Part shown: positions 6,925 to 24,000 of the stretch, piece by piece
Layout of the letters: every line of letters begins with the position of its first letter
Numbering within the stretch: position 1 is the first letter of the stretch
Source of the DNA: Khoudiadiopia massiliensis
GTDB taxonomy: Bacteria > Bacillota > Clostridia > Tissierellales > Peptoniphilaceae
DNA length: 24,000 nucleotides
NCBI GenBank assembly: GCA_900290095.1
Contig: OKQS01000001.1
Span: forward strand, 526,431-550,430
Direction of reading: 5' to 3'
Program-made: the position numbers and the translations under genes
The notes under the pieces: model-generated
The model's input: the letters and a program-made list of their open reading frames with translations, nothing else
Told to the model about the DNA's origin: nothing
The model's database searches: none

Positions 6925-7003
6925 CTTACCTCCTTTGACCAATAAAAGCGGATAATAAATTTTAGGTTCCCACCTTGTAGGTGAAAACCCTTTCCTCAGG
7001 TTA

Positions 7004-10031: not shown

Positions 10032-10571
10032 CTAAATCGGTCCTATCGATCCGAAGGGATAATAGCGGAAACTCGCGTGTCCCTCTATGGTATTTCCCTT
10101 GATGGGGCCGAATACCCTGCTGTCCTTGCTGGCTCCTTCTTTTCGATTGTCTCCTAAAACAAAGACCTCTCCCTCACCTATTAACCACTCGGCCTTGTCA
10201 CCTGTATATGTGTAATCGGAATTGACATAGTCCTCTTCCAGCCTTTTCCCGTTTACAAAGACGCTGCCGTTGTCAATTTGAACGTATTCATTGGGCAGGC
10301 CGATCACGCGTTTAATATAGAAGCGATTTTCACCGGGCGGCCTGAAAACAATTATGTCTCCTCTTTCCAGGTTGTCGACATCGGATCCGGGTTTAAAGAC
10401 CAAAAGCCTGTCCCCGCTATGGAGGGTATCCAGCATGGACGAACCCTCAACCCTGGTTGCACTAACCAGGAACTTGGTGATCAGGAAGGCCACCAATAGG
10501 GCTGAAGCTAAAATCTTCAGAAGCAAAACGGGGCCGAATTTTCTCTGTTTTGTTTTTTTTCCGGCCCTCAT
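10032..10571 (-). CDS. Type I signal peptidase (short paralog)
   Basis: 179 aa with an N-terminal TM ([22 protein letters not shown]). The catalytic Ser box is EGSSMLDTL and the Lys box is [11 protein letters not shown], followed by [23 protein letters not shown]. It ends 8 nt before lepA. Confidence 0.9.
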
Positions 10572-10604
10572 AGAACCTCCTCAATTCATGATCAGGCTAA
10601 TCTC

Positions 10605-11723
10605 TTAATAAAAACTCTTCATATGGGTGAGCGGCCAAATTCTGAAACGGGCAACCGCCTCAAGCCTGTCCGCAGGGACCGGCCCGAAAAGCCTGCTGTC
10701 ATTGCTGGCTCCGGGATTCCTATTGTCACCCATGACAAAGTATTGGTCTGCCGAAAGGACCCAAACATTGTCCTGGTAGCTTTCCGTGGGCAGATCTTTA
10801 ATATAGTGTTCAACCAAAAGGAGGCCGTCAATGAAGACCTTGCCGTCATGGATCTCAACGGTTTCTCCGGGAAGGCCTATGACCCTCTTTACATAGAGTT
10901 CGTCGGGATGGTCGGGGCTGTCAAGTATGACTATATCGCTCCTCTTAAATTGATGGCTGTATGTGGGTATCTTGCTTACAAGAAGAATATCTCCGTTACT
11001 GAGGGTTGGGTACATGGACTCCCCTTTGACCGTGGTGGCACCCCCTATGAACATCCTGATTATCAAGGCCAGGGCGACTGCGGCTACTAATGGAAGAACC
11101 CAGTCCCTCAATGCCACGAAAAATGAAGATTTCTTTTTAGGTGCTTCGATATTTTCTTGATCATATCTTTCCGGCCCTTGATTTACAGGCCTCTTCTTAT
11201 TTACAAGGAAAAGCTCGTCTTCGTAGGCATCCTCGTCGTCATAGTCCTCATCTTCATAAATTTCATAAGTTCCTTGGGCCAGGTCTTCGGTGTCTGAGAC
11301 ATCGGCTTTAGGGCTTTCTTGTGACTCCTCTTGGGCCGGGCTTTCCTCGACCGGCTCTTCTTGATTGTTCCACTTGACCCCGAAGAGCTCATCAGTATCG
11401 TCTATGTGGTTCTCAAGCGAAGATCCTTCTTCCTCTTTTTCTTCCTCAACAGACGCAACAGGTTCTTCAGCAGGGCCCTCTTCTTTCTGTTCTTCCTGAA
11501 GCAGTCTCCGTCTTAGCTGGAACTTCAGTGCATCCATGTCATAATCGCTATCTTCACTGCCGTCTTTCACTTCTCCTGCTGCTGACATTTCTTCTCTGCG
11601 ATCCTGCTCAAAATCCTCTTTAAGGCTTCTCATGATCTCTACAGGATCAAAAGGGCGGGTGCTTTCCATATCTTCATCTAGGCCCTTGTCTCCGCTCCGA
11701 TCTTCCCAATTTTCTATTTTCAT
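10605..11723 (-). CDS. Type I signal peptidase with a ~200-aa acidic N-terminal cytoplasmic extension
   Basis: 372 aa. The C-terminal ~170 aa form a complete SPase I: TM at ~201-224, GESMYPTL, YVKRVIGLPGE and GDNRNPGASNDSR. The N-terminal 200 aa contain 67 D/E by my count. AAGGAG lies 6 nt upstream of the ATG at 11723. There is no alternative start with an RBS near the TM. Confidence 0.85.
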   Translation of the reverse strand: MKIENWEDRSGDKGLDEDMESTRPFDPVEIMRSLKEDFEQDRREEMSAAGEVKDGSEDSDYDMDALKFQLRRRLLQEEQKEEGPAEEPVASVEEEKEEEGSSLENHIDDTDELFGVKWNNQEEPVEESPAQEESQESPKADVSDTEDLAQGTYEIYEDEDYDDEDAYEDELFLVNKKRPVNQGPERYDQENIEAPKKKSSFFVALRDWVLPLVAAVALALIIRMFIGGATTVKGESMYPTLSNGDILLVSKIPTYSHQFKRSDIVILDSPDHPDELYVKRVIGLPGETVEIHDGKVFIDGLLLVEHYIKDLPTESYQDNVWVLSADQYFVMGDNRNPGASNDSRLFGPVPADRLEAVARFRIWPLTHMKSFY

Positions 11724-11835: not shown

Positions 11836-12246
11836 TCACATTTTTAAAAGGCCGGCTTTTATCTCTTCAACTCTTTCGATTGCTTCATTAACCTGCTTTT
11901 CGGCTGCTCTTATTTTATCCTGAACCATCCAATCTACTATGAGCCCGTCAAAAAAGTAATCTGAAAAATTAAGGAAAGCCGATATATCTATATTTATCTC
12001 AAGGACTTGACCGACATCCGCCAATTCCTTGCTTAAATTTTTAACCGCTTGCTTTGCTTTTTCTATGTCGGAATTAGCATCGCTGATCCTAGCATGTTTT
12101 ATCAGGGTCGTTAAAGCTCCCCCTCCCAGCATATCGAAAATACCCCATTTGCCGGCGACTCTTAGCTGTTCTGCGGCATCTGTAAGACAGTCCAAGGCCT
12201 TATCAGCTGCAATCACCGCTTCTGCTATCTCTTTCTTTTTGTCCAT
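11836..12246 (-). CDS. Hypothetical all-helical cytoplasmic protein (136 aa), family not recognised
   Basis: Intact ORF with a GAAAGGA RBS. It has no TM or signal peptide, and coiled-coil-like ends. The centre carries KWGIFDMLGGGALTTLIKHARI and the aromatic patch FLNFSDYFFDGLIVDWMV. Confidence 0.6.
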   Translation of the reverse strand: MDKKKEIAEAVIAADKALDCLTDAAEQLRVAGKWGIFDMLGGGALTTLIKHARISDANSDIEKAKQAVKNLSKELADVGQVLEINIDISAFLNFSDYFFDGLIVDWMVQDKIRAAEKQVNEAIERVEEIKAGLLKM

Positions 12247-12373: not shown

Positions 12374-12796
12374 TTATTCTCCTTTTTCTACTACTGTCTG
12401 CCCGGTCTCATCATTTTTTAATGCCTTTATTCCTTTTCTATATTTTAAATAGGCACTGAGTGTGGCGGCTTCAGCCAAACCAATAATAATAGGGGCAACA
12501 GAGGGCCCGTCAGCCAAACCTTCAGACCAACGAGTTTCTTTATTAATTGCTAAAATAATAAACAATACTATATAGACAATTAGGTGTTTCTTATTTACAT
12601 ATCTTCCGGATAAAATAAAAAGTCCGCATGCCAAAATATTTATGATTAACCTCATTGTTTTTTGATCGAAACGGCCTATATAGAAATGAGAAAAAAGGGT
12701 TATTAATAATAGCTCTATCCATAAAAATAGTCCAAACACCCATAGTTGCTTATTTATTTTCGTTGTTGCTTTTTTCATAACTTTTTTAAGATACAT
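12374..12796 (-). CDS. Hypothetical small integral membrane protein (about 140 aa, 4 predicted TM)
   Basis: I moved the start to the ATG at 12796 (MYLKKVMKKATTKINKQLWVFGLFLWIELLLITLF...), with GGGAGA 7 nt upstream. The predicted promoter would exclude the track's start at 12841. The gene is very AT-rich (18-32% GC in spot-counted lines). Confidence 0.6.
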   Translation of the reverse strand: MYLKKVMKKATTKINKQLWVFGLFLWIELLLITLFSHFYIGRFDQKTMRLIINILACGLFILSGRYVNKKHLIVYIVLFIILAINKETRWSEGLADGPSVAPIIIGLAEAATLSAYLKYRKGIKALKNDETGQTVVEKGE

Positions 12797-12843
12797 AAAA
12801 TATCTCCCATCTTTAATCCGGCCAAAATAAATAGACCACAAGA

Positions 12844-13281: not shown

Positions 13282-13301
13282 ATTAATTTTTTCATTTAAT
13301 A

Positions 13302-13333
13302 AAGCAGCCCGACCCTTGAAGGCCGGACTGCTT
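13302..13333 (-). terminator. Intrinsic terminator ending the six-gene envelope operon
   Basis: An imperfect GC-rich hairpin, AAGCAGCCCGACC / GGCCGGACTGCTT. On the minus strand it is followed by TTATTAAAT. It lies about 60 nt after the stop at 13392. Confidence 0.55.
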
Positions 13334-13391
13334 ACGCAATTGATCTTGCTCAATCATTCGCTATTTGATCTATAACCTTACCTATAACCCT

Positions 13392-15995
13392 TTACTTTAG
13401 AGAATCCTCAACCGCCTGGCTTACTGCTTTCAATCCGCCAACGATGATGATTTTCTCATAGTTTGCCTTCTGGATATGTTTGGCAATCGCTTTGGGTAAG
13501 TCTGCCTTCTTCGTCAGAAGGACGGGAACATCTGCCCTTGCTGCTACGGGTCCCGCTGCCAGGGCATCGGCAAAGTCTTCGCCGGAGGCGAGATAGGCGG
13601 TGGTGGCTTTGGGGAAGAAGCGTTCAGCAATCATGGCTGACGTTTCATAACGAGTTTCCCCACCGATCCGTTCGATCTTTTGGGGTATGTCTTTCACCAC
13701 AGAATCTGTCAAGGCCGCTTTACCGCCCAAGACCAGGGCCGAAGAGACCTTCATATCTTGGATTGTCTTTTTAATGACATCAGGTAAGGCATTGGTCTTG
13801 GTGAGGAGGATGGGATAAGCCATCTTGCCGGCATAGGGGCTGATGGAAAGGGCATCCGCATAGTTGAGCCCGGTAGCCAGGATGACCTTCTCCGGATTCC
13901 CCTTTAGCTTAGCCATTCTCCAGGCAATCAGAGCCGATGTCTCATAACGGTCGGCCCCACCGATCCGGCTGGACTTCCAGCCCTTCTTTACTGCGCCTTC
14001 AACTTCATTGGAGAGGGCATTGTTCCCGCCAATGAGGATGACTTCTTTTGCACCAAGTCGGCTTGTTTCTGCCTTGACGCCTCCGTCCAATGACCGAGTC
14101 TTCGTTAAAAGAATCGGCGCATTCAGAGCCTTAGCTAATACGCCGGCCGTCAAGGCATCGGCAAAGTTATCAGACCGGGCCAAGATAACATAGTCGGCAT
14201 GGTCAAAGTTCTTCTTGGAGAGGACAATAGCTGTCTCAATCCGGTCTTCTCCGGCGATCCGTTCCGTCGCTCTCTTTTCCGTATTTGAGGGCGTCGTTCC
14301 GGGCTTGGGATCCGGTCCGGGTTGGTAAACTGTCTTCCACTGGGCCTGGACCATGGTGTTCTTATTCACTGTAATTTCATCGCCGACCGTCTTCTTTTCT
14401 CCCTCAACCATCCAGCCGTTAAAGGCCTTCCCTGCCGGCACTTCGAAGCCGTTTTCGGGAAGCTTCACGGTAACGGTCTGACCCTTCTTATAGGCCGATA
14501 CCGGCATAGAGCCTTTCGCTCCATTGCCATCGTAACCGATGAAGAAGAAGTCATTCTTGTAGTTGATGTCGTAATTATTCAGAGGACTGGGAATACCGGT
14601 CGGGTTGTGGAGGGTGGGGTCCTGCTTATAGCCCAAGTTGGTAAAAGCAGACCAGTTGGAGGGGGGAACAAAGAGGCCGCCTTCCGCCTTGTTTTGGTCA
14701 AAACCGGTGGTCTCGTCAAGATGGATATTCTTATAATAAGTACCTGGATCCACGATCAGGTCCTTGTATTCTTCCGCTGAAGAGTCCGGCATGGCAGCCG
14801 CTTTTTTATCATAAATTGCCCCGCCTGCTTCTTGGGCCGTATTCCCTTGGAAGAGGGTATTCTCTTCGCAGGTTAAATCGCCGCCTTCATCCAGGAAAAT
14901 CCCACCACCTTGTTTGGATGTGTTGTTCCGGACCAGGACATTTCTCAAGGTCACCTTGCCATTTGTGGTCAGGGCACCTCCATAATGGCTACTACTGTTT
15001 CCCTCAATTGTGGCATTTTCAGCGGTGAAAGTAGAATCCTGTAAGGAAATGGCTCCACCGGAAGCGGCACCTTTGTTTCCGGAAATCAGGATGGAATCTC
15101 TGCTGGCTCCCTTGAGATTCACCTCACTGTCCCTGGCCCCAATAGCCGTACCATAGAGCCTTCCCTGGTCTCCTGTCCCTGTGCGCTCCATCCTATTATT
15201 CATGATTCGTCCGGCTTGTATGTTTAGATGACCATTGACAAGATAAATAGCGCTACTCAGGAGGACTTCATTATTTTTTACTGTAGCGATATTATCTGAA
15301 ATCTCACCACCCAGCATAGTAAAGGCCACGTATTGTTCCGGCACTCCGTTTGGCCTTCCATTGAGAAAGATAACGCTACCGGCAGAATAAGGCTTATCAA
15401 TATGGCTCTGGTTGTTATGGATCTTTCCCCCATACATATCAAATGTCCCGGAGGTGACATTGACCGCTGAGGCCCAATAGTCCCCGCTGGTTACCATATT
15501 TTTAATTTCCACCCCACCATACATCTTGAGATGACCCGGGGTTAAACCTCCCCCACCCGGAGCACCGGCTCCGATAAAAACAGCCGGTATTCTTCGCGGA
15601 TTATCTTTAGAAGCTGAAGAAGTGATCGTCAAATCATTCTCGTTTCCCTGTGGATTCTCCCTCCCCAGGGACAGGGTGGAATCATTGACGATGGCGAAAC
15701 AGAATTTGTTCAGGTTTAGGGTATGTCCCTGACCCAAAAGGATGGTATCTTTTGTAATTCCTAAAGTGTGCTCTCCGTCAGGCATGACAATATCCGCCCC
15801 TAAGCGAATGATGTTCTCCTGACCATCTTCACCCTCCATCCGAATCTTGTGGAGAGCTTGTCCAAGCTCCACTGGCGTAGTAACTTTAATATCCAGCCCT
15901 CCTTCCGCCTTGGCAATTGGGGTCCCGGGCAAGAAGCCCAGGACCATGACCAAGGCGAGGACCAGGGCAAGCGTCCGTCGTCTTAATCCTTTCAT
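13392..15995 (-). CDS. Secreted cell-surface protein: beta-helix with Pmp-like GGA(I/L) repeats, a Listeria-Bacteroides-type repeat, and three C-terminal CWB2 wall-binding repeats
   Basis: 867 aa. The signal peptide is MKGLRRRTLALVLALVMVLGFLPGTPIAKA/EGG. It has repeated GGAISL, GGALTT, GGGIFL and FQGNTAQEAGGAIY motifs. The segment YDGNGAKGSMP...FNGWMVEGEKKTVGDEITVNKNTMVQAQW is flg_new-like. A Pro/Thr linker follows, then three ~98-aa CWB2 repeats. AAGGAG RBS. Confidence 0.85.
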   Translation of the reverse strand: MKGLRRRTLALVLALVMVLGFLPGTPIAKAEGGLDIKVTTPVELGQALHKIRMEGEDGQENIIRLGADIVMPDGEHTLGITKDTILLGQGHTLNLNKFCFAIVNDSTLSLGRENPQGNENDLTITSSASKDNPRRIPAVFIGAGAPGGGGLTPGHLKMYGGVEIKNMVTSGDYWASAVNVTSGTFDMYGGKIHNNQSHIDKPYSAGSVIFLNGRPNGVPEQYVAFTMLGGEISDNIATVKNNEVLLSSAIYLVNGHLNIQAGRIMNNRMERTGTGDQGRLYGTAIGARDSEVNLKGASRDSILISGNKGAASGGAISLQDSTFTAENATIEGNSSSHYGGALTTNGKVTLRNVLVRNNTSKQGGGIFLDEGGDLTCEENTLFQGNTAQEAGGAIYDKKAAAMPDSSAEEYKDLIVDPGTYYKNIHLDETTGFDQNKAEGGLFVPPSNWSAFTNLGYKQDPTLHNPTGIPSPLNNYDINYKNDFFFIGYDGNGAKGSMPVSAYKKGQTVTVKLPENGFEVPAGKAFNGWMVEGEKKTVGDEITVNKNTMVQAQWKTVYQPGPDPKPGTTPSNTEKRATERIAGEDRIETAIVLSKKNFDHADYVILARSDNFADALTAGVLAKALNAPILLTKTRSLDGGVKAETSRLGAKEVILIGGNNALSNEVEGAVKKGWKSSRIGGADRYETSALIAWRMAKLKGNPEKVILATGLNYADALSISPYAGKMAYPILLTKTNALPDVIKKTIQDMKVSSALVLGGKAALTDSVVKDIPQKIERIGGETRYETSAMIAERFFPKATTAYLASGEDFADALAAGPVAARADVPVLLTKKADLPKAIAKHIQKANYEKIIIVGGLKAVSQAVEDSLK
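13395..14264 (-). repeat. Three tandem CWB2 (cell wall binding repeat 2) modules at protein level
   Basis: The repeat units start at aa 578 (ERIAGEDRIETA), aa 676 (SRIGGADRYETS) and aa 775 (ERIGGETRYETS). Each carries the (F/Y)ADAL ... P(I/V)LLTK ... (I/L)GG pattern typical of Clostridioides Cwp proteins. Confidence 0.8.
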
Positions 15996-16022
15996 TTCTT
16001 TCTCCTTCTTTCTCTCCGGAAT

Positions 16023-16547
16023 TTATTTCTCTACATTGGCCTCCATAACCGCCGTGTAGTTTTGGAACTTACCATCGACTACCAATAAATTAGTAAAAGT
16101 TACCTTGACCTTCTTACTTTCGTTATTCAAGCCAAAGGCTTCCTGGGCATTCTTCATCTTGGCCCCGACAGGAGTTGATTGTGGATAATTAAGCTCTTCT
16201 ACTGCAGGATATGAAGAGCCCATCTCACCCTGCTCATCAATGACGCTGTCAGGACTTAAGAAGAGTCCGTCGGCTTCCTCAGTACAGCCGATGTTCTCAT
16301 AGCTATAATCTACGCATACGACCTGTTTAGGTTTCATATCTGTAAACTCGTTTCTTCCATCAAGAACCTTTACGGAATTTATGACCAGCTTCCACTTTCC
16401 GTCCACCACCCATTCTTCTCCCGGACCAAGGGTTTGTTCCAATTCGTTCCCTTTCGACTTCTCCTTGCCGGCGTCAGGCTTTTTACTTCCACAAGCCGTA
16501 AAAGCTAATAAAACTACTAAGCAAAGAACTAATTTTTTAATCTTCAT
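16023..16547 (-). CDS. Small lipoprotein, possibly DUF4352-like Ig-fold
   Basis: 174 aa. The lipobox is LLAFTA-C19 (MKIKKLVLCLVVLLAFTACGSKK). The beta-rich body (WKLVINSVKVLDGRNEF...VCVDYSYENIG...) resembles DUF4352 lipoproteins, but that family assignment is tentative. TAAGGAGG RBS. Confidence 0.7.
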   Translation of the reverse strand: MKIKKLVLCLVVLLAFTACGSKKPDAGKEKSKGNELEQTLGPGEEWVVDGKWKLVINSVKVLDGRNEFTDMKPKQVVCVDYSYENIGCTEEADGLFLSPDSVIDEQGEMGSSYPAVEELNYPQSTPVGAKMKNAQEAFGLNNESKKVKVTFTNLLVVDGKFQNYTAVMEANVEK

Positions 16548-16577
16548 TTTGTCCTCCTTATGGGTTCACCCACAACA

Positions 16578-18074
16578 TTATCCTCTTCCCATTACCGATA
16601 TTATCTTCTGGAATAGGGGCATAGAATAAAAATCTTTTTTCTTAAGTCCATCCAGATCAGCGGCCTTCCCGGCGTCTATGATCCCCTCCGGCAAATTAAT
16701 GATCTCTTTCTTCTCATTAATCATGGGACTCATCTCTATCTTTTCATCCCTGTACCTGATCGTGATTCTAATATTCGTTGTCCCCTTTTCCTGCCTCTGA
16801 CAGATCAAGGTGGTCGAACTCTGAGCTATGGTATCCAGAATATTGTTTTCCACCTCTTTTACAGACCCGTCCTTCTCTGTCTTTATCTCCTTAAGGCTTA
16901 CGGTGGCCTTGTCCCATTTCGGGACTACAAGATAGTAGTCTTCTCCTATGAGCTCGCTGTTTTCAAAGTTCGGGTTATCCCTGGTTGCCAATAGGAGCCT
17001 GGGATCATCAAAATCGTTGAAAATGTTCTGGCAGGGATCCAATCTGGTCAACACGTCTTCCAATTCTTTCTCCGCATTGGCATAGCCCACATAGACTATC
17101 AATCCTTTGATCTTTTCGTCGTAGGGATCCAGACCCATTGCCCTGGCCATTTTTACGAACTGCGGAGAATAGCCCCTGTCATTAACTTTTTTGGAATAGA
17201 GTTCCAGGGTATTTTGATATAGGCCCGGCCCCCAGCTATAGTAAGCGTTGAAAATGAACATTGGCCTTCCCGTAGGATCCAGATAAAATCTTCTTTCAGG
17301 CACATCCCGACCCTCCCAAATATCTTGCAAAGCCATGCCCTCATAGTGGGTTACATCACCCAGATAGTGGTAATTCTCGGCGTTGTAGTTCCAAACTTCC
17401 ACCATTCTCTGATAATCATAGTCAATGCTTTCTTCCATAAGGTCCATGGCTTCTTCTTTGTCGATTCCTAGATATGTAAGCAGGTCCTCATCTTTGATGA
17501 ATTTCCCGTCATCCAGGGTGAAGTTAAAAACCTTATGTGTGGAGCCGTCTCCGTCTCCGCCGTTCGTATATTGCAGGTGAATGCTAAGAATCTGATCATC
17601 TTCATACACTGAAAATGTGGAACTTATCATTATATAATCAGGATCCAAATCATTCTTGGCAGCATTGTAGGTCTCTTTTAAGAGATTAATTGTTTCCTCA
17701 ATTTGCTTATTGGCCCTTTGAGCATCCTCAGAATCCAGAAGAATTCGTGGAAAATGGACACCGTTAACGAGATTTTTTGCAGCTTTTTCATGTTTGGGCT
17801 CTATGAAGTCCTTCCAGACTTCCCTATCCTCAACGTGGTCAGACATGGACCCTGCTGTTGCACCCTGAACAAGTTTTCCCCTTGCCTTGGCATCCTTTAT
17901 CCCTCCGGCTACAAGCTTAGTGGCTATGCCTGTTGTTGCAGAGACTTGGGAAGTCTGACCTACACCTGATTGGTCCTGACTTTCGGAGCCATCCGAAGTC
18001 TTGCCTTTGCCGCTGCAGGCTACCAAAATTAAGGCCAAGGCCAATATAAGAAGCCTATATTTTCCACTTTTCAT
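16578..18074 (-). CDS. Large lipoprotein of unknown function
   Basis: 498 aa. The lipobox is ILVA-C20 (MKSGKYRLLILALALILVACSGKG), followed by a Ser/Gly/Gln-rich linker. The segment VHFPRILLDSEDAQRANKQIEETI...FNFTLDDGKFIKDEDLL is reminiscent of DUF4163/DUF3298 (RsiV/PdaC-like) domains, at low certainty. AGGAGGG RBS. Confidence 0.7.
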   Translation of the reverse strand: MKSGKYRLLILALALILVACSGKGKTSDGSESQDQSGVGQTSQVSATTGIATKLVAGGIKDAKARGKLVQGATAGSMSDHVEDREVWKDFIEPKHEKAAKNLVNGVHFPRILLDSEDAQRANKQIEETINLLKETYNAAKNDLDPDYIMISSTFSVYEDDQILSIHLQYTNGGDGDGSTHKVFNFTLDDGKFIKDEDLLTYLGIDKEEAMDLMEESIDYDYQRMVEVWNYNAENYHYLGDVTHYEGMALQDIWEGRDVPERRFYLDPTGRPMFIFNAYYSWGPGLYQNTLELYSKKVNDRGYSPQFVKMARAMGLDPYDEKIKGLIVYVGYANAEKELEDVLTRLDPCQNIFNDFDDPRLLLATRDNPNFENSELIGEDYYLVVPKWDKATVSLKEIKTEKDGSVKEVENNILDTIAQSSTTLICQRQEKGTTNIRITIRYRDEKIEMSPMINEKKEIINLPEGIIDAGKAADLDGLKKKDFYSMPLFQKIISVMGRG

Positions 18075-18090
18075 GGCAAACCCTCCTGAC

Positions 18091-19284
18091 CTATAGACCT
18101 AAAAGATCGTGTTTAGCCTTATCGAACTCCTCTTGGGAAATAACTCCCGCATCCAACAGTTTTTTCATCTTAATTAATTTATCTGTAGGATCTTCCTGTG
18201 TCTGATTCGCTTGCCCGGCACCGAAATTCGGATTATAGGTGCTGTCTGTACCTTCCTGCTGAAGACCGCCCATCATTCCTCCGGCTGCATTCATTCCCAG
18301 ACCCATAAAGGCCATACCGGCTCCGCCGCCACCATTTTCTCCTGCTGCCTGCATGCCTCTGGCAACTGACTGCTGCAAAAAAGCATTGCCACGTCTGCCT
18401 GAAAGGGCATCGGCTTTTTTAACATCGGACATAAGAAGCTTGGTGTCTTCGTCATATTCTATGGCAAGGATTGCCGTTTTTACTATTGCCAAGCCCCTGT
18501 CGGACCTCCACTGATAGGCATCTTCCACCGCTGTTGTCAGAGATTGGGCAAAGCCTATTTGATCCCCCTGTATCCTGCTCATGCGGTTCCCCTTGGACGG
18601 ATCATTGGTATAGTTCGAAAATGCGGCTGACAAGCTTCCCACAACTTCGTTAAATAGCTGCTCACCCGCAGGATTGTCCATATCGCCAAAGTCGAAGACC
18701 GGTGCGTTTTGAATAATATATTTTTGCGGGACGAAGTTTTTAACAAAGAGAAGAGGGTCCACAATCTTCAAAGTATAGGTTCCTCTGGTTACCGCCCCTA
18801 CCTGGGTTCCGAAAAATGCGTCGTCCCAATAGATCTCACTTTGGGTTCCAAATCGGTTGTTTGGAATCTCCTTTAAATTGACATAGAAGGCCAGTTGCTG
18901 GGATCCGGGTTGGCCTCCGAATTTTATTTTCTCCCAGGTTGACTTTATAATTGACGCATTTAGGCCATTTCCTTCAAATATACTTTGGGAATTAACATCA
19001 TCTGATGTAAATATAAAGCCTCCGGGTTCAGCCACTATTCCCGTAATAGCCCCGTCCTGCATGGTGATAAGGGCTGTTCCCTCAGGAACTATGATCTTGC
19101 TTCCGTTGCTTATAATATTGTTATTTCCCTTGGTATTTTCTCCCCTGCCATTATTCTGGCCTTGGGCCATAGCCGGAAAAACTCCGGCTGTGGCGGAAAG
19201 CCCATCTTGAGGTAGGTAAAAATCTTTCCATTGATCGGCAAAGGTCCCTGAGAGAGCCCCTGCAAACGCTTTAATAAATCCCAT
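18091..19284 (-). CDS. SPFH/Band-7 superfamily protein of the YdjI type (COG4260, 'virion core protein-like') with a C-terminal SHOCT domain
   Basis: 397 aa. The N-terminus MGFIKAFAGALSGTFADQWKDFY is characteristic of this family. It has a Gly/Met-rich linker (GGGGAGMAFMGLGMNAAGGMMGGL). The C-terminal DKLIKMKKLLDAGVISQEEFDKAKHDLLG matches the SHOCT consensus. GGAGG RBS. Confidence 0.75.
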   Translation of the reverse strand: MGFIKAFAGALSGTFADQWKDFYLPQDGLSATAGVFPAMAQGQNNGRGENTKGNNNIISNGSKIIVPEGTALITMQDGAITGIVAEPGGFIFTSDDVNSQSIFEGNGLNASIIKSTWEKIKFGGQPGSQQLAFYVNLKEIPNNRFGTQSEIYWDDAFFGTQVGAVTRGTYTLKIVDPLLFVKNFVPQKYIIQNAPVFDFGDMDNPAGEQLFNEVVGSLSAAFSNYTNDPSKGNRMSRIQGDQIGFAQSLTTAVEDAYQWRSDRGLAIVKTAILAIEYDEDTKLLMSDVKKADALSGRRGNAFLQQSVARGMQAAGENGGGGAGMAFMGLGMNAAGGMMGGLQQEGTDSTYNPNFGAGQANQTQEDPTDKLIKMKKLLDAGVISQEEFDKAKHDLLGL

Positions 19285-19313
19285 CTCGACCTCCTAATTT
19301 TTATCCTAATTTT

Positions 19314-19685
19314 TTAGTTAACCGCTTTAGGTAATTTGACAAACATAAATATTGTGGCTGCAAAGAGAAGAACGCTTGATGCCAGCAAGAGGTAGAATCC
19401 GTATGTTACAAATTCTTTAAATTCTCCCAATGAGCTGTACCGATAAATTGCCAATGACAGGTTTAAGCCTGCAAAAATAAGGGCGGGGATTCTTTTCTTG
19501 AATATGGTTGTGACTATTGTCAAAACTGCAAGACATATTAATATAACTCCGGGCCCGACTCCGCTTTCAGACTCTAATAAATTTGCCGAAATTCCGAAAA
19601 GTTCAACTGCTGGCAGAACTGTGGAAATACAAACCAGCAGGGCAAATATGATGACAAGAATTTGACTAACATGCATTTTTTTCAT
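19314..19685 (-). CDS. Hypothetical 4-TM small membrane protein
   Basis: 123 aa with four hydrophobic segments (ILVIIFALLVCISTVL, GVILICLAVLTIVTTIF, ALIFAGLNLSLAIY, FYLLLASSVLLFAATIFMFV). AAGGAGG RBS. Confidence 0.65.
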   Translation of the reverse strand: MKKMHVSQILVIIFALLVCISTVLPAVELFGISANLLESESGVGPGVILICLAVLTIVTTIFKKRIPALIFAGLNLSLAIYRYSSLGEFKEFVTYGFYLLLASSVLLFAATIFMFVKLPKAVN

Positions 19686-19745
19686 GATTTCCTCCTTATT
19701 TTTATTTTTTAATTATGTAGGTATTACAATTCCTATTAAAATTTT

Positions 19746-21284
19746 TTATTTGGTCGTTTTTTCCTCGTCCATCTCCTCCAATCTTTTTTTAGCCTCCAAG
19801 GCTTCATCAAGCACGCCCCTATCCATCGCTTCCTTTAAATGATCGTCTTCACTTAAATCCACACGATTTCCTTTGAGCATGGTGCTGTTTTCGCCCCACA
19901 TTCTCGCAGTGCTGAGACCATATTTGCTGGTCTCAAAATCGTCCTCTTGTATGAGATTGGAAATTTCATGTTTGGTTTCCAGCTCATAGTGGTGCCTTTC
20001 ATTTGAATTGCGGTATCTCAAGTACATTACTATGTAAAAAACAAATCCTGACAGCAGAAGGACATAGAACCACTGCCTTGAACTTTGAAAATCCGTGCCC
20101 CGGTACCTGTCCATAGCCGCTATCATGTTAATGACAAAGGCTGCAAGGCCTCCGAAGATCTCGACCAGGACTGCGAATAAGAAGAGCTTGGTGAAGTTGA
20201 TTGGTACACTTCCCATGGTTTCACTGGTTCTTGCATTTACCGCCACATAGTGGAGGAGGTTCTTCTTCCCCTTATTTTCCATGTAGCTGTAGAGCCAGAC
20301 CGGAAGATAAGCCGACTTCCATGAATCACCTTTAACTGTGTAGTCTTCGTCCTCCCACTTTACCCCCCTGTCGTACCGGGTCAGAGTGTCCTGGGCGGCA
20401 AGTCTTGCCACATCCGAGCTTTGAACGTCGACGACTTTCTTGAGTTTTTTAATATTTGTGTCTCTCTTTTCAGAAGTGTAGCCTTTCAGGTAATTTGCGT
20501 TGAAATTGACACAATTTTCAGTATCGAAGGGCATAATTGCGTTTATAACATTTGTTGTCTTTGTCTTTGATGTGTAGTCCAATTTGTCGGTGCTCGACTC
20601 TATCGAAAGGTCGTCAATGTAGATGTCAAACTCCCTTTTTATCCTGTAAACATCGGCATCGTATTCAAAGTGCTTATTCTTGCCCTCACCAACTTCCCGG
20701 CAATCCGTTTGAATCTCGCCTTTGCCTTCAAGTCTCATATGTCCGTTGATATCGACCAGCATGTAGGGTATGTAAACGCCGCAAATATTTTCTGTGCTGA
20801 ATTCCCTGGTGAACTTGGGATGGGCGAAGAATTTCCTCTTATTTACAAAATCCGAAATCTTTTCCTTGGCATCTTCTCTTGTAATCTTGAAAGGCAAAAT
20901 CACATCCGGTACAGCCCCGTTTGGAATTTGATTGTTCAAAGACAGGGTATTCCTGCACCAATGGCACCTTGCCTGGGTTGTGGTCTTCGTGTCAATTACA
21001 ACTTCAGCCCCGCAGCTTTCGCATTTGAGCGTTATCAGGTCTTCGCTGTTGTCGTCAATGTCCTGGGCCCCGGATCTTATGCTGGTTCCTTCGAGGGTGC
21101 TGATATCCTGATCCTCGGGGGCTAAATCAGGTTCAAATTCATGGCGGCAAAAGTTGCACCTGAGCTTGCCCGTCTTTGTGTTTGTTTCAATGTCGGTCGA
21201 TCCGCACTTCGGGCATTTGATCTGCCCGTCTTTTAGACCCCCTTCATTTTCTATAACTTTAAAATCTTTATTTTCTTCGCTCAT
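19746..21284 (-). CDS. Double zinc-ribbon, 2-TM membrane protein of the YdjG type
   Basis: 512 aa. Two CxxC-x15-CxxC ribbons are present (C24/27/43/46 and C88/91/107/110). The conserved core is VILPFKITREDAKEKISDFV...GVYIPYMLVD...YLPVWLYSY...VNARTSETMGSVP. Two TMs lie at ~365-390 and ~405-424, followed by an acidic helical tail. GGAGGTG RBS. Confidence 0.7.
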   Translation of the reverse strand: MSEENKDFKVIENEGGLKDGQIKCPKCGSTDIETNTKTGKLRCNFCRHEFEPDLAPEDQDISTLEGTSIRSGAQDIDDNSEDLITLKCESCGAEVVIDTKTTTQARCHWCRNTLSLNNQIPNGAVPDVILPFKITREDAKEKISDFVNKRKFFAHPKFTREFSTENICGVYIPYMLVDINGHMRLEGKGEIQTDCREVGEGKNKHFEYDADVYRIKREFDIYIDDLSIESSTDKLDYTSKTKTTNVINAIMPFDTENCVNFNANYLKGYTSEKRDTNIKKLKKVVDVQSSDVARLAAQDTLTRYDRGVKWEDEDYTVKGDSWKSAYLPVWLYSYMENKGKKNLLHYVAVNARTSETMGSVPINFTKLFLFAVLVEIFGGLAAFVINMIAAMDRYRGTDFQSSRQWFYVLLLSGFVFYIVMYLRYRNSNERHHYELETKHEISNLIQEDDFETSKYGLSTARMWGENSTMLKGNRVDLSEDDHLKEAMDRGVLDEALEAKKRLEEMDEEKTTK

Positions 21285-21428
21285 AATTCACCTCCAAAAG
21301 ATTTTCCTCTTTCCGGCTAAAGATACGCCTTGCTTATCCAACTCAATTTAATCACGGTATATATAGAAAATAAATTGTCCTAAGGTTCATCTTTTGGCCA
21401 TTTTTGCAAAATAGACCTTTGGTCTATA

Positions 21429-21469
21429 TAAAAAACAGCCACAATTTAGGCCTCCTAAACTGTGACTGT
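21429..21469 (-). terminator. Intrinsic terminator of the LuxR-type regulator gene
   Basis: A 15-bp stem forms between 21435-21449 and 21455-21469. Its two mismatches on the plus strand become G-U pairs on the minus strand, so the stem is complete only in the minus-strand RNA. A T-run follows on the minus strand (complement of 21430-21434). Confidence 0.8.
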
Positions 21470-21503
21470 TTCAACATTTGTCAATAAAGATCAATTTTAA
21501 ATT

Positions 21504-23108
21504 TTAAATTTTCTTATTATTCTTGTTATTACTTTCATTTTTACCGATAATATTATCGATCATTCCACAACCTTTTATCATATCCAGATATAGGAGCAGC
21601 TCTCCCCTGGAAGACACATTGAGCTTTTTATATATCTTCAAGATGTGGTGTTTGGCAGTGCTTTTGCTCACAAAAAGCAAATCGGGCAAGTCATCCATAT
21701 TGTGGCCTTGTATGAGCAGGGATAGAACATTCATCTCAGCAGGAGTCAGATCTTCCGTAGCTTCTATGAAATTCTTGAATTTATTGGCAAGGTAAACCGG
21801 CACCCCGTCAAAATTATCGGTTTTCATATTCTTTCTTAGATTTTTGATCAATTCATTAATTTCATAAAACCTGAATTTTTCAACATCATAGCCCCCATTA
21901 GGATCTAAAATATTATCCTGATTCCCAATCATCTCCAAACTTTCTGTGATAGGCGTTATATATCTCTTTGTAAAAATTAAGCCTCCGCTTATAGAAAAGA
22001 ATAGAAACACGATGACAGTAATTACAAGGCTGATAAGATTTTCAAACAGGTCCCTATTAAAGTCACTCTTTGGCACCATGACGACCAACATGGACCTGTT
22101 GCCATTTTTTAAGAGGGGGATTTCTCTGGTCACCCCCAGATAGGTGTTGTCCTTACTAATAAATTCCACCAAGTTTGATCCCTGTTTTTTTATGGTCAAA
22201 GTGCTTTTCGGCAGGTAGTAATAGCCGCTATCTGTTCCGCTGCTCAAGGTCAGTGAAGGGTCGATTTTTCCGTCCTTATTCGCTACCGGAAGAAAAAGTG
22301 TTGTAAGTTTGTCCAATTTGCTTGGCTGTGACAGCTTCTCCTTGAAATACATCTGCTCGACTTCGAAACCGCAGATCCCATAAAAGCTTCCATCCTTGCC
22401 TATGATTGGCAGGGTTATAAGCATTATTCTCTGATCTGTCCCGGGCAAGGTAAAAACCGGGGTTATATTATATGACTCATAAAGGGGAGCGTCTCCTTTG
22501 TTCAAATGCAAATAATTTGGTATTTGTGAGATGTCATATTCCAACTTCCATTTTCTGTGGGGCATTGAATTGTGCTTTTTTGCAACCTCTACATCCCCTC
22601 TGTAAACTATAATTGAAGAGTCTTTCAGGCTCCTGGTATCCAGCTTAATGTAAAGGCCGCTCCTGAATTCTCCTTCCCTATTAACCTTTGAATTGACGGT
22701 TGTATTCCACAATACAAAAGCTCCGGAAGCGTCGGCATTGAACATGCTGTTTTTCAGGTCTTCAAATATTGAGTCCTGAATTTTGGCCAGGGCTTTCCGA
22801 TTATCCTTCAATTTCTCAAAACTTATATTTTCTTTCTCCATAAGGTCTTCCAGTTTTGACCCGGAAGTTTTGGAAAGGTCCATGGCGGAAATTGCAGATT
22901 TGCTGAAGTATCCCTTGATCTCTTTTTTCATTATGGACAACTGCATATCGAAATTCTTGACATAATCTTTTCTGACACTTTTAAATTGGCCAAAGAGGGC
23001 CATAGCCACAAGAATATATATGAGCAGTAAACCTGCAAACAAAATCAAATATTCAAACAGCTTCCTATACATGGAATTTTTTTTACGCTTTTTTAATACG
23101 TCAAACAA
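21504..23108 (-). CDS. Membrane-anchored one-component regulator: TM, ~315-aa extracytoplasmic (Cache-like) sensor domain, TM, then a LuxR/FixJ-type HTH
   Basis: 534 aa with a TTG start at 23108 and AGGAG 7 nt upstream. TM1 is at ~17-39 and TM2 at ~358-380. The C-terminal LTPAEMNVLSLLIQGHNMDDLPDLLFVSKSTAKHHILKIYKKLNVSSRGELL is a LuxR-type HTH. There is no receiver domain. Confidence 0.8.
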   Translation of the reverse strand: MFDVLKKRKKNSMYRKLFEYLILFAGLLLIYILVAMALFGQFKSVRKDYVKNFDMQLSIMKKEIKGYFSKSAISAMDLSKTSGSKLEDLMEKENISFEKLKDNRKALAKIQDSIFEDLKNSMFNADASGAFVLWNTTVNSKVNREGEFRSGLYIKLDTRSLKDSSIIVYRGDVEVAKKHNSMPHRKWKLEYDISQIPNYLHLNKGDAPLYESYNITPVFTLPGTDQRIMLITLPIIGKDGSFYGICGFEVEQMYFKEKLSQPSKLDKLTTLFLPVANKDGKIDPSLTLSSGTDSGYYYLPKSTLTIKKQGSNLVEFISKDNTYLGVTREIPLLKNGNRSMLVVMVPKSDFNRDLFENLISLVITVIVFLFFSISGGLIFTKRYITPITESLEMIGNQDNILDPNGGYDVEKFRFYEINELIKNLRKNMKTDNFDGVPVYLANKFKNFIEATEDLTPAEMNVLSLLIQGHNMDDLPDLLFVSKSTAKHHILKIYKKLNVSSRGELLLYLDMIKGCGMIDNIIGKNESNNKNNKKI

Positions 23109-23129: not shown

Positions 23130-24000
23130 TTAATTTTCCAGCCCCCGCCTGCATTCTTCGACAAGCTTCCCGGCATTCTCTCCTTGCATATATCTGTCTT
23201 CCCAATTCTTTTGATTCTTTCTGATAAAATCGTAAAATTTCAGCACCTTATCATAGTTGTATGTTTCCGGTAAAAAAGAATATGTTTTTCTCATCTCGGC
23301 CAGGGCTTCATATAGCTGCTTATAGCTGTCATTCTTAAATTTGAAGTCTGAAATTTTCTCAAAGGCTTCTTTTCTTACGGGCATATAGCCGGCTTCCGTG
23401 ACAAATTTTAAATTTCTCTCACCTTCGGTGATCCACTTTGCAAAAATTGTTGCAGCCTTGGCCTTTTCCTCTGTTGTTTTGTATGCACAAAGTCCCGTCC
23501 CTGCCAAGGTGTCAACATCTTTTCCGGGATTTTTTGTGGGCAAAGGAAGGACCTTTAAGTTCATGGCTTCTGAAGTGTTGTCCGGATAGGTTACCGTATC
23601 GTTGTAATATAGGACGGCGGCACTGGAGCTTATCCCTGCCATAGTCTCACCGGTCATCATTTGTGTATTAGCATAGAGATCTGATACTACAATATTACCC
23701 TTTACCAGGCTTGACAGAAAAGCATCCAATTCCGTGTGAAAAGCCTGATTGTCAGTGTCATACCAACCTACATCATTGTGAAGTTTGTTATCGGGATTTG
23801 CTGACAAGCAGGCAAGTTCGGCTTCCCTGAGCAAATAGTCCAGGGCACAGAAGGGCTTGCCTCCGGACCAGGTATGGAAGATTTCCGCTGCATCAAAGAA
23901 ACCTTCCCAACTTTTCAGTTGGTCATAAGTCACGCCTGTGGCTTCTGAGAATCTGTCAAACATGCTTCCATTTATATAGAGCATATGAGTGGATTTTGAA
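23130..24000 (-). CDS. ABC-type extracellular solute-binding protein, family 1 (N-terminus outside the window)
   Basis: The frame stays open to the window edge (...SKSTHMLYINGSMFDRF...), so the track's M at 23984 is internal. The C-terminal two-thirds look like a sugar-type SBP (LAGTGLCAYKTTEEKAKAATIFAKWITEGERNLKFVTEAGYMPVRKEAF). No permease or ATPase gene lies downstream. Confidence 0.7.
   Translation of the reverse strand, partial: SKSTHMLYINGSMFDRFSEATGVTYDQLKSWEGFFDAAEIFHTWSGGKPFCALDYLLREAELACLSANPDNKLHNDVGWYDTDNQAFHTELDAFLSSLVKGNIVVSDLYANTQMMTGETMAGISSSAAVLYYNDTVTYPDNTSEAMNLKVLPLPTKNPGKDVDTLAGTGLCAYKTTEEKAKAATIFAKWITEGERNLKFVTEAGYMPVRKEAFEKISDFKFKNDSYKQLYEALAEMRKTYSFLPETYNYDKVLKFYDFIRKNQKNWEDRYMQGENAGKLVEECRRGLEN

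Follow-up and report, generated by a model that had tools for sequence, protein, structure and literature searches.

The nearest described relative of the locus studied here is the pspA-ydjGHI (pspA-samGHI) operon of Bacillus subtilis, and experimental roles of YdjGHI/SamGHI are presented in two reports (PMC8581546; bioRxiv 10.64898/2026.02.06.704340). Passages of the SHOCT survey give Band_7_1+SHOCT as the commonest architecture of that domain (PMC3581485), while passages of Ravi et al. 2024 describe band-7 proteins as recurrent partners of sub-membrane stress complexes (PMC11237479). In these passages both surveys focus on PspA-containing contexts, and the main-text passages of neither contain a PspA-free pair of an SPFH gene followed by a gene for two zinc ribbons and two transmembrane (TM) segments, a 4-TM partner or a lipoprotein regulon.

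In the window, that is the whole stretch of 24,000 nucleotides analysed, six minus-strand open reading frames extend from 21284 to 13392 and are listed here with the two flanking terminators.

19746..21284, minus strand: g1, 512 aa, SamG/YdjG-like (Pfam, TM prediction, homologues)
19314..19685, minus strand: g2, 123-aa 4-TM protein (profile-profile comparison and HMM family)
18091..19284, minus strand: g3, 397-aa soluble SPFH protein, SamI/YdjI-like (Pfam, no TM segment)
16578..18074, minus strand: g4, 498-aa lipoprotein (lipobox LVAC; AF2 and Foldseek)
16023..16547, minus strand: g5, 174-aa lipoprotein (lipobox FTAC)
13392..15995, minus strand: g6, 867-aa secreted protein (Pfam CW_binding_2 and Chlam_PMP)
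21430..21472 (about 21430-21475 in folding), minus strand: terminator closing the regulator gene, 19-bp stem and U6
13302..13333 (folded region 13296-13340), minus strand: operon-end intrinsic terminator, hairpin followed by UUUAUU

The sequence-only reading had described six closely spaced genes, each with a ribosome-binding site, junctions free of terminators and intrinsic terminators only at the two ends, and had assigned the domain content of the products; this description holds throughout. The ORF check returned the same coordinates, with intergenic gaps from g1 to g6 of 60, 29, 16, 30 and 27 nt, a GGAGG-like site lies 5' of each of the six start codons, and the Pfam, TM and lipobox predictions agree with the assigned domains. 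Folding of the five junctions revealed no hairpin with a T-run and the terminator scan of the window listed no minus-strand terminator within them; folding energies are -25.0 kcal/mol (z -7.4) for the hairpin 5' of the operon and -24.3 kcal/mol (z -6.2) for the one at its end. Weak promoter-like matches (9/12) were returned by the window scan upstream of g2 and within g3 and g6. The six genes, whose block is also found whole in a 95%-identical MAG and in Kallipyga massiliensis, are probably co-transcribed as a single unit of a Kallipyga-like Tissierellia bacterium.

We favour, with a probability of roughly 55%, a reading in which three layers of different age have been fused: the core g1-g3, a lipoprotein regulon and the add-on g6. 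A widespread stress module, two lipoproteins and a surface protein would thereby be joined in one operon of a gut-type anaerobe.

The g1-g3 core is an ancient and widespread membrane-stress module, kin of Bacillus SamG/SamI. The g1 protein consists of two N-terminal TFIIB-like zinc ribbons (Pfam), a conserved cytoplasmic alpha/beta domain, a predicted hairpin of two TM segments and, at the C-terminus, a cytoplasmic tail; its structure model is poor (pLDDT 57). In g3, Pfam identifies a Band_7_1 domain and, at the C-terminus, a SHOCT domain; the protein also has a linker rich in Gly and Met, and no TM segment is predicted in it. Relatives of g1 are encoded in at least 567 genome stretches, and E<1e-30 is reached by 324 clusters at 50% identity. 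A g3 homologue adjoins the g1 homologue in 80/80 species loci examined, most of which hold the bare pair, and the two proteins keep 55-76% identity across classes in a nearly constant gene order, SPFH before zinc ribbon. That the first half of the operon is of the YdjG/YdjI type, as had been claimed, is borne out by an Enterococcus cluster ordered SPFH, 2xZnR-TM (two zinc ribbons and a TM segment), TPM, with which g1 shares 27% identity over the zinc-ribbon gene (E 2e-38) and g3 32% over the SPFH gene (E 6e-50). The YdjGHI domain architecture published in passages of PMC11237479 agrees with this cluster, through which the homology of g1 and g3 with the YdjG/YdjI (SamG/SamI)-type pair is supported. 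No PspA or TPM/YdjH gene was found beside the pair by Pfam among the operon neighbours, and the 94 operon neighbours include no protease, NfeD or translocase partner.

Three strong TM segments and a weak one are predicted in g2. Its lineage profiles match each other (hhalign 94.6%, E 6.5e-8), and the family HMM is present in 17 of the 80 loci at variable positions relative to the pair. Judged from these profiles, g2 is a member of a recurrent, optional accessory family of the core pair.

Further elements lie upstream of g1.

23130..24000, minus strand: SBP_bac_8 solute-binding lipoprotein (SBP) gene, 3' part, cut by the window end (Pfam E 1.4e-11)
21504..23108, minus strand: 534-aa membrane-bound LuxR/GerE-type one-component regulator (Pfam GerE, TM prediction)
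21412..21426, minus strand: box 1, candidate operator with the perfectly palindromic sequence TAGACCAAAGGTCTA, at about -80 from the inferred start
21375..21389, minus strand: box 2, TGAACCTTAGGACAA, a degenerate version of box 1 spaced 37 bp from it, with its centre inferred at about -42.5
21346..21354, minus strand: extended -10-like element TGATTAAAT, inferred operon promoter, conserved in the alignment

The SBP gene is the first of the conserved block, and an SBP gene of 439-440 aa lies 5' of the regulator in loci L005, L085 and L152 and in Anaerococcus. The predicted topology of the regulator places a ~320-aa extracytoplasmic region between TM segments 21-39 and 361-379, and residues 454-506 form the C-terminal HTH (Pfam GerE, E 1.5e-8); in Anaerococcus and K. 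massiliensis this position is occupied by orthologues of 57-66% identity. On the evidence of gene neighbourhoods, these two upstream genes, absent from the sequence-only reading, are the most consistent partners in the lineage. K. massiliensis and the window lineage keep the block in different flanking contexts, and the eight genes therefore move as a unit.

A two-palindrome promoter precedes the operon in both Kallipyga and Anaerococcus. Box 1 is invariant across the two genera; searched as an exact pattern, it has a single occurrence in each of 10 loci with a regulator orthologue, none in 141 other loci, and two in L152. The 37-bp spacing of the boxes recurs in L005 and L022, the ACCTnnGG core of box 2 is kept in six promoter copies, and TGnTTnAAT is kept in 6/6 aligned copies. 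In L152, a third lineage, the SPFH-ZnR genes form one transcription unit and g4-g5 another, and the two-palindrome promoter of the fused operon stands before each (chance expectation 0.2 matches; two reached in 2/200 shuffles). Since the promoter is duplicated before both units, this arrangement points to a single regulon to which the core pair and g4-g5 belong. Box 1 could fold as a small hairpin (-7 kcal/mol), and the boxes could be bound by a factor other than the adjacent regulator; Peptoniphilus loci with g4 have no boxes and use other LuxR-type regulators.

The g4 family (120 clusters) is confined to Peptoniphilaceae, and g5 has likewise been seen only there. The AF2 model of g4 (pLDDT 81) matches 3cyg (E 5e-4), 3s5t (DUF3298) and 5jen, the RsiV-lysozyme structure (prob 0.95), in Foldseek, a marginal match suggesting an RsiV/DUF3298-like fold for the N-terminal half; the beta-rich C-terminal half found no match there, and neither g4 nor g5 has a Pfam hit. 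The g5 protein matches the phage lipoprotein family phrog_806 (E 7e-19). Its homologues sit after g4 in L023, L099 and L152; as a companion of the pair, g5 is limited to Kallipyga, L152 and a subset of Anaerococcus.

A neighbourhood check upheld the expected co-occurrence of the lipoproteins with the pair and went against that of the CWB2 gene. The g4 gene lies no more than 10 kb from the pair in half of the informative Peptoniphilaceae pair loci (10/20), and of the 39 informative loci anchored on g4 about 28 (~70%) have the pair nearby, in at least five different arrangements and in all deep g4 clades, with tight junctions in Anaerococcus (-10 to +24 nt). A linkage beyond coincidence is thus supported by gene context. 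At least 11 informative loci, for example L086 and L087, carry g4 without the pair, and one retains it beside a decayed, truncated SPFH remnant; g4 thus does not depend on the module. The recombination history of the g4-g5 segment also differs from that of g1-g2, giving a mosaic.

The surface protein g6 carries three CWB2 repeats (CW_binding_2, E 2e-60) and a Chlam_PMP repeat (Pfam), the latter within an N-terminal PMP-repeat beta-helix region, and residues about 486-556 form one Listeria-Bacteroides-like repeat resembling Flg_new proteins. It adjoins the pair only in Kallipyga, most of the 80 loci are bare, and one conserved six-component system is not supported. From its distribution, g6 is a Kallipyga-specific, fast-evolving CWB2 surface protein, a local add-on at the genus level.

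If the module works as SamGHI does in B. subtilis, its membrane proteins g1 and g2 would tether g3 to the inner membrane face, where it may oligomerise, sense or stabilise a stressed membrane and restrain signalling by its membrane partner. In the second layer, at the level of Peptoniphilaceae, g4 with its ligand-binding-type fold and g5 would share the regulon of the pair. The two-box promoter (-80, -42.5) would most likely be activated by the adjacent membrane LuxR-type regulator, a pairing and a geometry that we infer, and this regulator would have the solute-binding lipoprotein as its working partner. A cue from outside the cell would then switch on at once the cytoplasmic-face membrane module and the outer-face lipoprotein pair, g6 as the third layer riding on the shared transcript. 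A physical trans-envelope complex is disfavoured because the predicted topology gives g1 and g2 only short loops outside the membrane, and hence little surface for lipoprotein contact; such contact with the module is putative.

It seems unlikely that only g1-g3 are functional and that g4, g5 and g6 represent unrelated downstream read-through, their recurrence being inherited synteny. Such passive accretion would fit the many bare pairs, the restriction of g6 to Kallipyga, the solitary g4 of L086, L087 and others, the mosaic g4-g5 segment, and the unrelated exported proteins found downstream elsewhere (VWA/pilin-like Ig, Big_2, Flg_new+LRR). However, the g4 linkage survives its rearrangements across all deep clades, the block is kept though its flanks are not conserved, and the duplicated dual-box promoter of L152 ties g4-g5 to SPFH-ZnR across separate units. 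Exported proteins are also enriched in the three genes 3' of the pair (25.6% vs 11.6%, OR 2.6, p 4e-5), as counted across Bacillota with a crude predictor and with phylogeny ignored.

SPFH proteins in general are tied to the assembly and quality control of membrane proteins. The SPFH assembly might here organise or quality-control insertion, lipidation or export, the lipoproteins and surface protein being cargo and not sensors. Chaperone-like roles are proposed for band-7 partners in passages of Ravi et al. (PMC11237479), SamI loss blocks BslA secretion in B. subtilis according to the preprint (bioRxiv 10.64898/2026.02.06.704340), and in several lineages the genes that follow the pair again encode exported or surface proteins. 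This account is nevertheless quite improbable given operon neighbours devoid of protease, NfeD or translocase partners, downstream proteins that are mutually unrelated, and most loci having no exported gene adjoining the pair. Very improbable, in our view, is an anti-phage or abortive-infection system in which a zinc-ribbon membrane effector is held under SPFH control and the surface proteins block adsorption. The zinc-ribbon region weakly matches the PADLOC candidate PDC-S64 (E 6e-7), one g1 homologue carries the source label 'PDDEXK family nuclease', and the phrog_806 match of g5 could be read in the same sense. Against this, no nuclease family was detected in g1, g2-g6 gave no PADLOC hit, the neighbours are housekeeping genes and not defence islands, and the pair is very strongly conserved in sequence and order across classes; the hits in phage collections come from records that are unverified or lack annotation, one of them clearly a high-GC bacterial-looking contig.

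The operon has in common with B. subtilis pspA-ydjGHI a soluble SPFH protein of Band_7_1 type that contains a low-complexity linker and ends in a small domain. It is encoded in tight operonic pairing with a membrane protein that combines two zinc ribbons at its N-terminus with a cytoplasmic domain and a TM segment, and the homology is supported through the Enterococcus cluster. The gene order (zinc ribbon, membrane protein, SPFH) mimics ydjG-H-I, but pspA and the TPM-domain YdjH are missing and the middle gene encodes an unrelated 4-TM protein. The g3 C-terminus is SHOCT and not the zinc finger of YdjI, while g1 adds to the YdjG plan a second TM segment and a conserved ~90-aa cytoplasmic tail. 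Control appears to lie with a LuxR-type regulator and palindromic boxes instead of sigma-W, and lipoprotein and CWB2 genes are attached.

Other comparisons concern single components. SPFH-NfeD and HflK/C-FtsH likewise place an SPFH scaffold gene beside a membrane-partner gene, but no NfeD, protease or AAA+ partner occurs here and g3 is without its own membrane anchor. The N-terminal half of g4, which is extracytoplasmic, resembles in its fold RsiV, the anti-sigma-V lysozyme receptor, and DUF3298/DUF4163 proteins; g4, however, is a lipoprotein without anti-sigma or TM domain, has an additional C-terminal beta domain, and no sigma-V gene lies near it. Like the CWB2 cell-wall proteins of Clostridia (SlpA/Cwp), g6 carries at its C-terminus three CWB2 repeats in tandem and at its N-terminus a variable, functional region, which in g6 is made of a PMP-repeat beta-helix and a Listeria-Bacteroides-type repeat, and unlike theirs its gene ends an SPFH operon.

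The operon described in the sequence-only reading was recovered as claimed. Its six minus-strand reading frames between 21284 and 13392, here called g1 (zinc-ribbon protein), g2 (four-TM protein), g3 (SPFH protein), g4 and g5 (lipoproteins) and g6 (CWB2 surface protein), have exactly the proposed boundaries and are separated by gaps of 60, 29, 16, 30 and 27 nt. A GGAGG-type sequence precedes all six start codons, none of the five junctions folds as a hairpin with a T-run, in agreement with the terminator scan, and strong terminators close both ends (21430-21475, -25.0 kcal/mol, z -7.4, U6; 13296-13340, -24.3 kcal/mol, z -6.2). Promoter-like matches within the block are weak ones only (9/12), and no Rfam elements were found. 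We infer that the six genes are co-transcribed.

The same six-gene block occurs in a 95%-identical MAG (uncultured Tissierellia bacterium) and in Kallipyga massiliensis. Upstream of it lie an SBP_bac_8 lipoprotein gene and the gene of a 534-aa membrane-bound LuxR/GerE regulator, both present at the same position in Anaerococcus (57-60% identity) and Kallipyga massiliensis (66%). Because its flanks differ between the window lineage (holA side and rpsT side) and Kallipyga massiliensis (LOR/asnA side and alpha-amylase side), the resulting eight-gene block behaves as a unit. Nucleotide identity between the window and Kallipyga massiliensis is 61-78% from the SBP gene through the regulator gene, g1 and g2 into the 5' part of g3, and 91-97% over the 3' part of g3, g4, g5 and the start of g6 (15900-18300); such a jump at the lipoprotein genes suggests a recent recombination tract. 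The surroundings in the window are housekeeping genes, namely rpsT, two signal peptidase genes, lepA and glycosidase genes. The two signal peptidase I genes stand in tandem (10032-11723), and the product of the second (372 aa) carries an N-terminal extension of about 200 aa ahead of its S26 domain. Between them and rpsT are two small reading frames conserved in one of the compared loci (L001) and with no family match:

11836-12246, minus strand: small ORF of 136 aa, helical
12374-12841, minus strand: small ORF of 155 aa, multi-TM

The core of the operon is the pair formed by g1 and g3. The g1 product (512 aa) combines two TFIIB-like zinc ribbons (CxxC...CxxC), a conserved central region, TM segments at 360-378 and 404-422 and a conserved C-terminal tail. 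The g3 product (397 aa) is a soluble SPFH protein of the Band_7_1 type (E 4.7e-7) with zero TM segments, a low-complexity linker and a small C-terminal SHOCT domain (E 8.9e-8). More than 6,600 protein clusters match g1, and an exhaustive search gave 324 clusters (clustered at 50% identity) with E<1e-30. In 80 of 80 species loci a g3 homologue adjoins the g1 homologue, nearly always in the order SPFH then zinc ribbon and with a gap of 7-90 nt; among these loci and Kallipyga massiliensis, the order zinc ribbon, four-TM, SPFH is confined to the window lineage and Kallipyga massiliensis. The pair is 55-76% identical across classes. Families recurring among its 94 same-strand operon neighbours are further zinc-ribbon membrane proteins, Cu_amine_oxidN1, Yip1 and GerE, with 0 instances of PspA, TPM or NfeD.

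Other lineages surround this pair differently. Downstream of it, Bacilli-type MAGs (L036, L061, L062, L069 and L073) carry the same core in another, larger elaboration, in which the SPFH and zinc-ribbon genes are followed by those of a zinc-ribbon plus Yip1 membrane protein (~290-310 aa), a Q/N-rich WG-repeat protein (~520-600 aa), a member of the four-TM family (~206 aa) and a zinc-ribbon-headed protein of 820-950 aa. In many Peptoniphilaceae without the 534-aa regulator, the pair adjoins a set of three genes, encoding a 551-aa multi-TM protein, a HATPase_c protein and a Response_reg plus GerE regulator, which is divergent and upstream in L007, L015 and L017-L021 and downstream in L010, L014, L020, L025 and L029. 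A g1 homologue of Aedoeadaptatus acetigenes (P0082) is labelled 'PDDEXK family nuclease' by one source; no nuclease family was detected in g1 or in this protein. A record named 'UNVERIFIED: Bacteriophage sp.' (MT835641.1) holds a 394-aa ORF directly upstream of a 40% identical, apparently frameshifted g1 homologue, on a contig of dense overlapping long ORFs that we took as a sign of high G+C content; we regard it as probable bacterial DNA within a virome data set.

The small multi-TM product of g2 (123 aa) matches no Pfam family. Small four-TM proteins are also encoded between the SPFH and zinc-ribbon genes in Mogibacterium and [Eubacterium] infirmum, and directly 3' of the zinc-ribbon gene in a group of Clostridia MAGs. 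The profiles of these two groups align across all four helices (hhalign 94.6%, E 6.5e-8) and have K-IP and GFY motifs in common. With an HMM built from both, members of the family were detected in 17 of 80 loci, so that g2 is a recurrent, optional third component. Homology of g2 to YdjH was rejected.

The two lipoproteins, g4 (498 aa) and g5 (174 aa), possess lipoboxes and have no Pfam or NCBIfam match. The g4 family comprises 120 clusters, conserved over their full length and restricted to Peptoniphilaceae. The sequence-only reading had left to a neighbourhood survey whether the lipoproteins accompany the pair, and g4 often does: 10 of 20 informative Peptoniphilaceae loci have it no more than 10 kb downstream of the pair, and in L035 it stands upstream. 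From the reverse direction, with 62 metagenome loci anchored on g4 and individual look-ups, about 28 informative loci were linked to the pair and 11 unlinked, the linked ones occurring across every deep clade of the g4 tree. The gene immediately follows the zinc-ribbon gene in Anaerococcus (junctions of -10 to +24 nt) and comes after a 1,000-1,480-aa Flg_new/LRR/Cu_amine_oxidN1 surface protein in Peptoniphilus; elsewhere one or two other genes intervene. In three loci (L126, at 6633-6956, L113 and L135), the 107-aa ORF directly upstream of g4 corresponds to the SPFH C-terminal linker and SHOCT domain only and no zinc-ribbon gene is present. These are decayed copies of the locus with g4 retained, and g4 can therefore outlive the module. 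Judged from gene content, the SPFH/zinc-ribbon module can do without g4, and g4 can exist apart from it. The g5 gene follows g4 only in Kallipyga, in some Anaerococcus and in a third lineage (L152). It matches a phage protein family of unknown function, phrog_806, over nearly its full length (E 7e-19); related lipoproteins thus occur in phage genomes.

The AF2 model of g4 is good (pLDDT 81). With Foldseek, its N-terminal half gave marginal matches to 3cyg (E 5e-4), to the DUF3298 structure 3s5t (E 0.034) and to lysozyme-bound RsiV (5jen; E 0.036, prob 0.95, TM(target) 0.47), and its C-terminal beta domain gave none. Unlike RsiV, g4 has no anti-sigma domain and no TM anchor, its lipobox signal peptide being the sole membrane attachment signal, and a cognate ECF sigma factor gene was sought in the g4 block and not found.

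The g6 product (867 aa) consists of an N-terminal hydrophobic signal peptide, a Chlam_PMP repeat region and three tandem CWB2 repeats (CW_binding_2, E 2.1e-60), which identify it as a CWB2 cell-wall protein. It is the fastest-diverging gene, its protein being 78% identical to that of the 95%-level relative. Over the N-terminal part (15000-15900), nucleotide identity to that MAG, otherwise 85-99%, is only 58-73%; this stretch is hypervariable, as expected of an exposed antigen or receptor. Next to the pair, g6 is found in Kallipyga only. The idea that the CWB2 protein belongs to a conserved system was not borne out, and this surface protein is better corrected to a genus-specific passenger than kept as a piece of a conserved machine. 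Downstream of the pair, other lineages encode unrelated exported or adhesin-like proteins (VWA with pilin-like Ig; Big_2; Flg_new/LRR). Among the three same-strand genes downstream of the pair 25.6% are exported versus 11.6% of other genes of the same loci (OR 2.6, p 4e-5, with a crude signal-peptide predictor and uncorrected for phylogeny), which is suggestive of a general tendency and is not evidence for a fixed partner.

Evidence for a regulatory link between the pair and the lipoproteins came from the upstream region. An alignment of the intergenic stretches that separate the regulator gene from the first operon gene, which have otherwise diverged, brought out three conserved elements:

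21412-21426, minus strand: box 1, an invariant palindrome (TAGACCAAAGGTCTA)
21375-21389, minus strand: box 2, a degenerate version of box 1 placed exactly 37 bp downstream of it
21346-21354, minus strand: conserved TGnTTnAAT element, candidate extended -10

All six promoter copies aligned retain the boxes and the -10-like element. LuxR-type activator promoters of the lux-box kind have a palindrome overlapping the -35 region (around -42.5) and an adjacent regulator gene. If TGnTTnAAT is an extended -10, the two boxes would be centred at about -80 and -42.5, as in an activator-dependent promoter. The exact box 1 palindrome was present once in each of the 10 loci with a regulator orthologue and in 0 of 141 other loci. 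The third lineage, L152 (g4 50% and g5 71% identical), has the order SPFH, zinc ribbon, SBP, GerE, g4, g5 and carries the complete two-box promoter twice, before the SPFH gene and before g4; 0.2 matches are expected by chance, and two matches were reached in 2 of 200 shuffles. The pair and the lipoproteins, though separate units there, keep the same dedicated promoter, and the evidence for a regulon is therefore independent of adjacency. The stretch between the duplicated promoter and g4 (7850-7930 of L152) holds a ~22-nt unit (ttgaaagatgatttttaat...) in about three tandem copies. The neighbouring SBP/LuxR-type membrane regulator is the candidate that probably switches on all operon genes.

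The best-supported reading, to which we assign a probability of about 0.55, is a layered unit. Its first layer, g1 to g3, would be an inner-face, SamG/SamI-like membrane-stress module (SamG and SamI being YdjG and YdjI of Bacillus subtilis); g4 and g5 would form a lipoprotein pair that is specific to Peptoniphilaceae and belongs to the same regulon, and g6 would be the genus-specific CWB2 passenger. The trans-envelope interpretation of the sequence-only reading is thus partly upheld, for the module kind and the lipoprotein regulon and not for the CWB2 partner. A physical trans-envelope complex is counted against, as g1 and g2 are predicted to expose short loops only and g4 appears separable. 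Passive accretion, with g4 to g6 unrelated to the module and merely read through, would suit g6, confined to Kallipyga, and the loci where g4 stands without the pair; the promoter shared by separated units in L152 speaks against it for g4 and g5, and we hold this explanation to be unlikely. That the products of g4 to g6 are cargo of the SPFH assembly (a client-scaffold relation) is quite doubtful. A role in phage defence, one of the functions initially proposed, is very improbable. PADLOC matched only the zinc-ribbon level of g1 (PDC-S64, E 6e-7) and nothing in g2 to g6, and the housekeeping context speaks against it.

On the layered reading one may tentatively build a self-contained, PspA-independent circuit protecting the membrane from two sides, which we regard as improbable at this stage. 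The membrane-bound LuxR-type regulator, assisted by the SBP, would detect an extracellular cue and co-induce an inner-face SPFH/zinc-ribbon/four-TM assembly and an outer-face, RsiV-like lipoprotein pair, and both arms would act on the same membrane patch from opposite sides. For example, g4 might capture lysozyme or another wall-damaging agent, or a wall fragment, and the SPFH assembly might stabilise the membrane or signal inside. If true, this would for the first time define an input and an output for the SamG/SamI-like pair that is so widespread in anaerobic Firmicutes.

To our knowledge, work on SamG/SamI-type SPFH modules has been confined to B. subtilis, where they are read through PspA. 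A tblastn search of plasmid records provided the link to this system, with an Enterococcus gallinarum replicon (NZ_CP116511.1) encoding an 'SPFH domain-containing protein' (410 aa, zinc-ribbon end), a 374-aa protein with two ribbons and one C-terminal TM, and a 'TPM domain-containing protein'. Residues 23-385 of g1 are 27% identical to the 374-aa protein (E 2e-38), and g3 is 32% identical to the SPFH protein (E 6e-50). The replicon, 'plasmid' pK205-4a-A (484 kb, typed non-mobilizable), has the cluster amid dnaX, recR, tmk and ribosomal protein genes and resembles chromosomal or chromid DNA. The trio matches the architectures given in PMC11237479, where YdjI is a band-7 protein with a zinc ribbon, YdjG has two zinc ribbons, a domain and a TM, and YdjH is a TPM protein. 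In B. subtilis the soluble SPFH protein YdjI is brought in by YdjG and YdjH and itself recruits PspA (PMC8581546), and loss of SamI/YdjI leads to constitutive SamG-SamH signalling, according to a preprint (bioRxiv 10.64898/2026.02.06.704340). The YdjG N-terminus MIISYKCPNC, taken from primers (PMC8581546), had 0 matches among 390 proteins.

The assignment to a YdjG/YdjI-type module accordingly stands for the SPFH and zinc-ribbon components, by homology to the Enterococcus cluster; the TPM and PspA components were sought and are absent from the operon. Like YdjG, g1 has two ribbons, a cytoplasmic domain and a TM, and like YdjI, g3 is a Band_7_1 SPFH protein with a linker, but it ends in SHOCT instead of a zinc finger. 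The operon lacks a TPM gene (YdjH/SamH), with the four-TM g2 instead, and the ESCRT-III-like pspA; no TPM or NfeD match was found in the six proteins with Pfam, and no PspA match anywhere in the window. It differs from SPFH-NfeD operons in having no NfeD-family gene beside g3. The kind of system is already known (YdjG/YdjI, SamG/SamI); what appears undescribed in the literature searched is a variant without PspA and TPM, with a four-TM partner, a dedicated candidate operator and regulator and co-regulated lipoproteins. The PspA-less, TPM-less pair is a very large and strongly conserved version in anaerobic Firmicutes (of 599 genome stretches matched, at least 567 encode a g1 relative), many of its carriers being human-associated (Peptoniphilus, Anaerococcus, Mogibacterium, Erysipelotrichaceae). 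Over the Bacillus model, the Peptoniphilaceae clusters add a dedicated candidate regulator, a precise candidate operator and a small regulon with outward-facing lipoproteins, so that the inducing signal and the partners of the module become directly testable.
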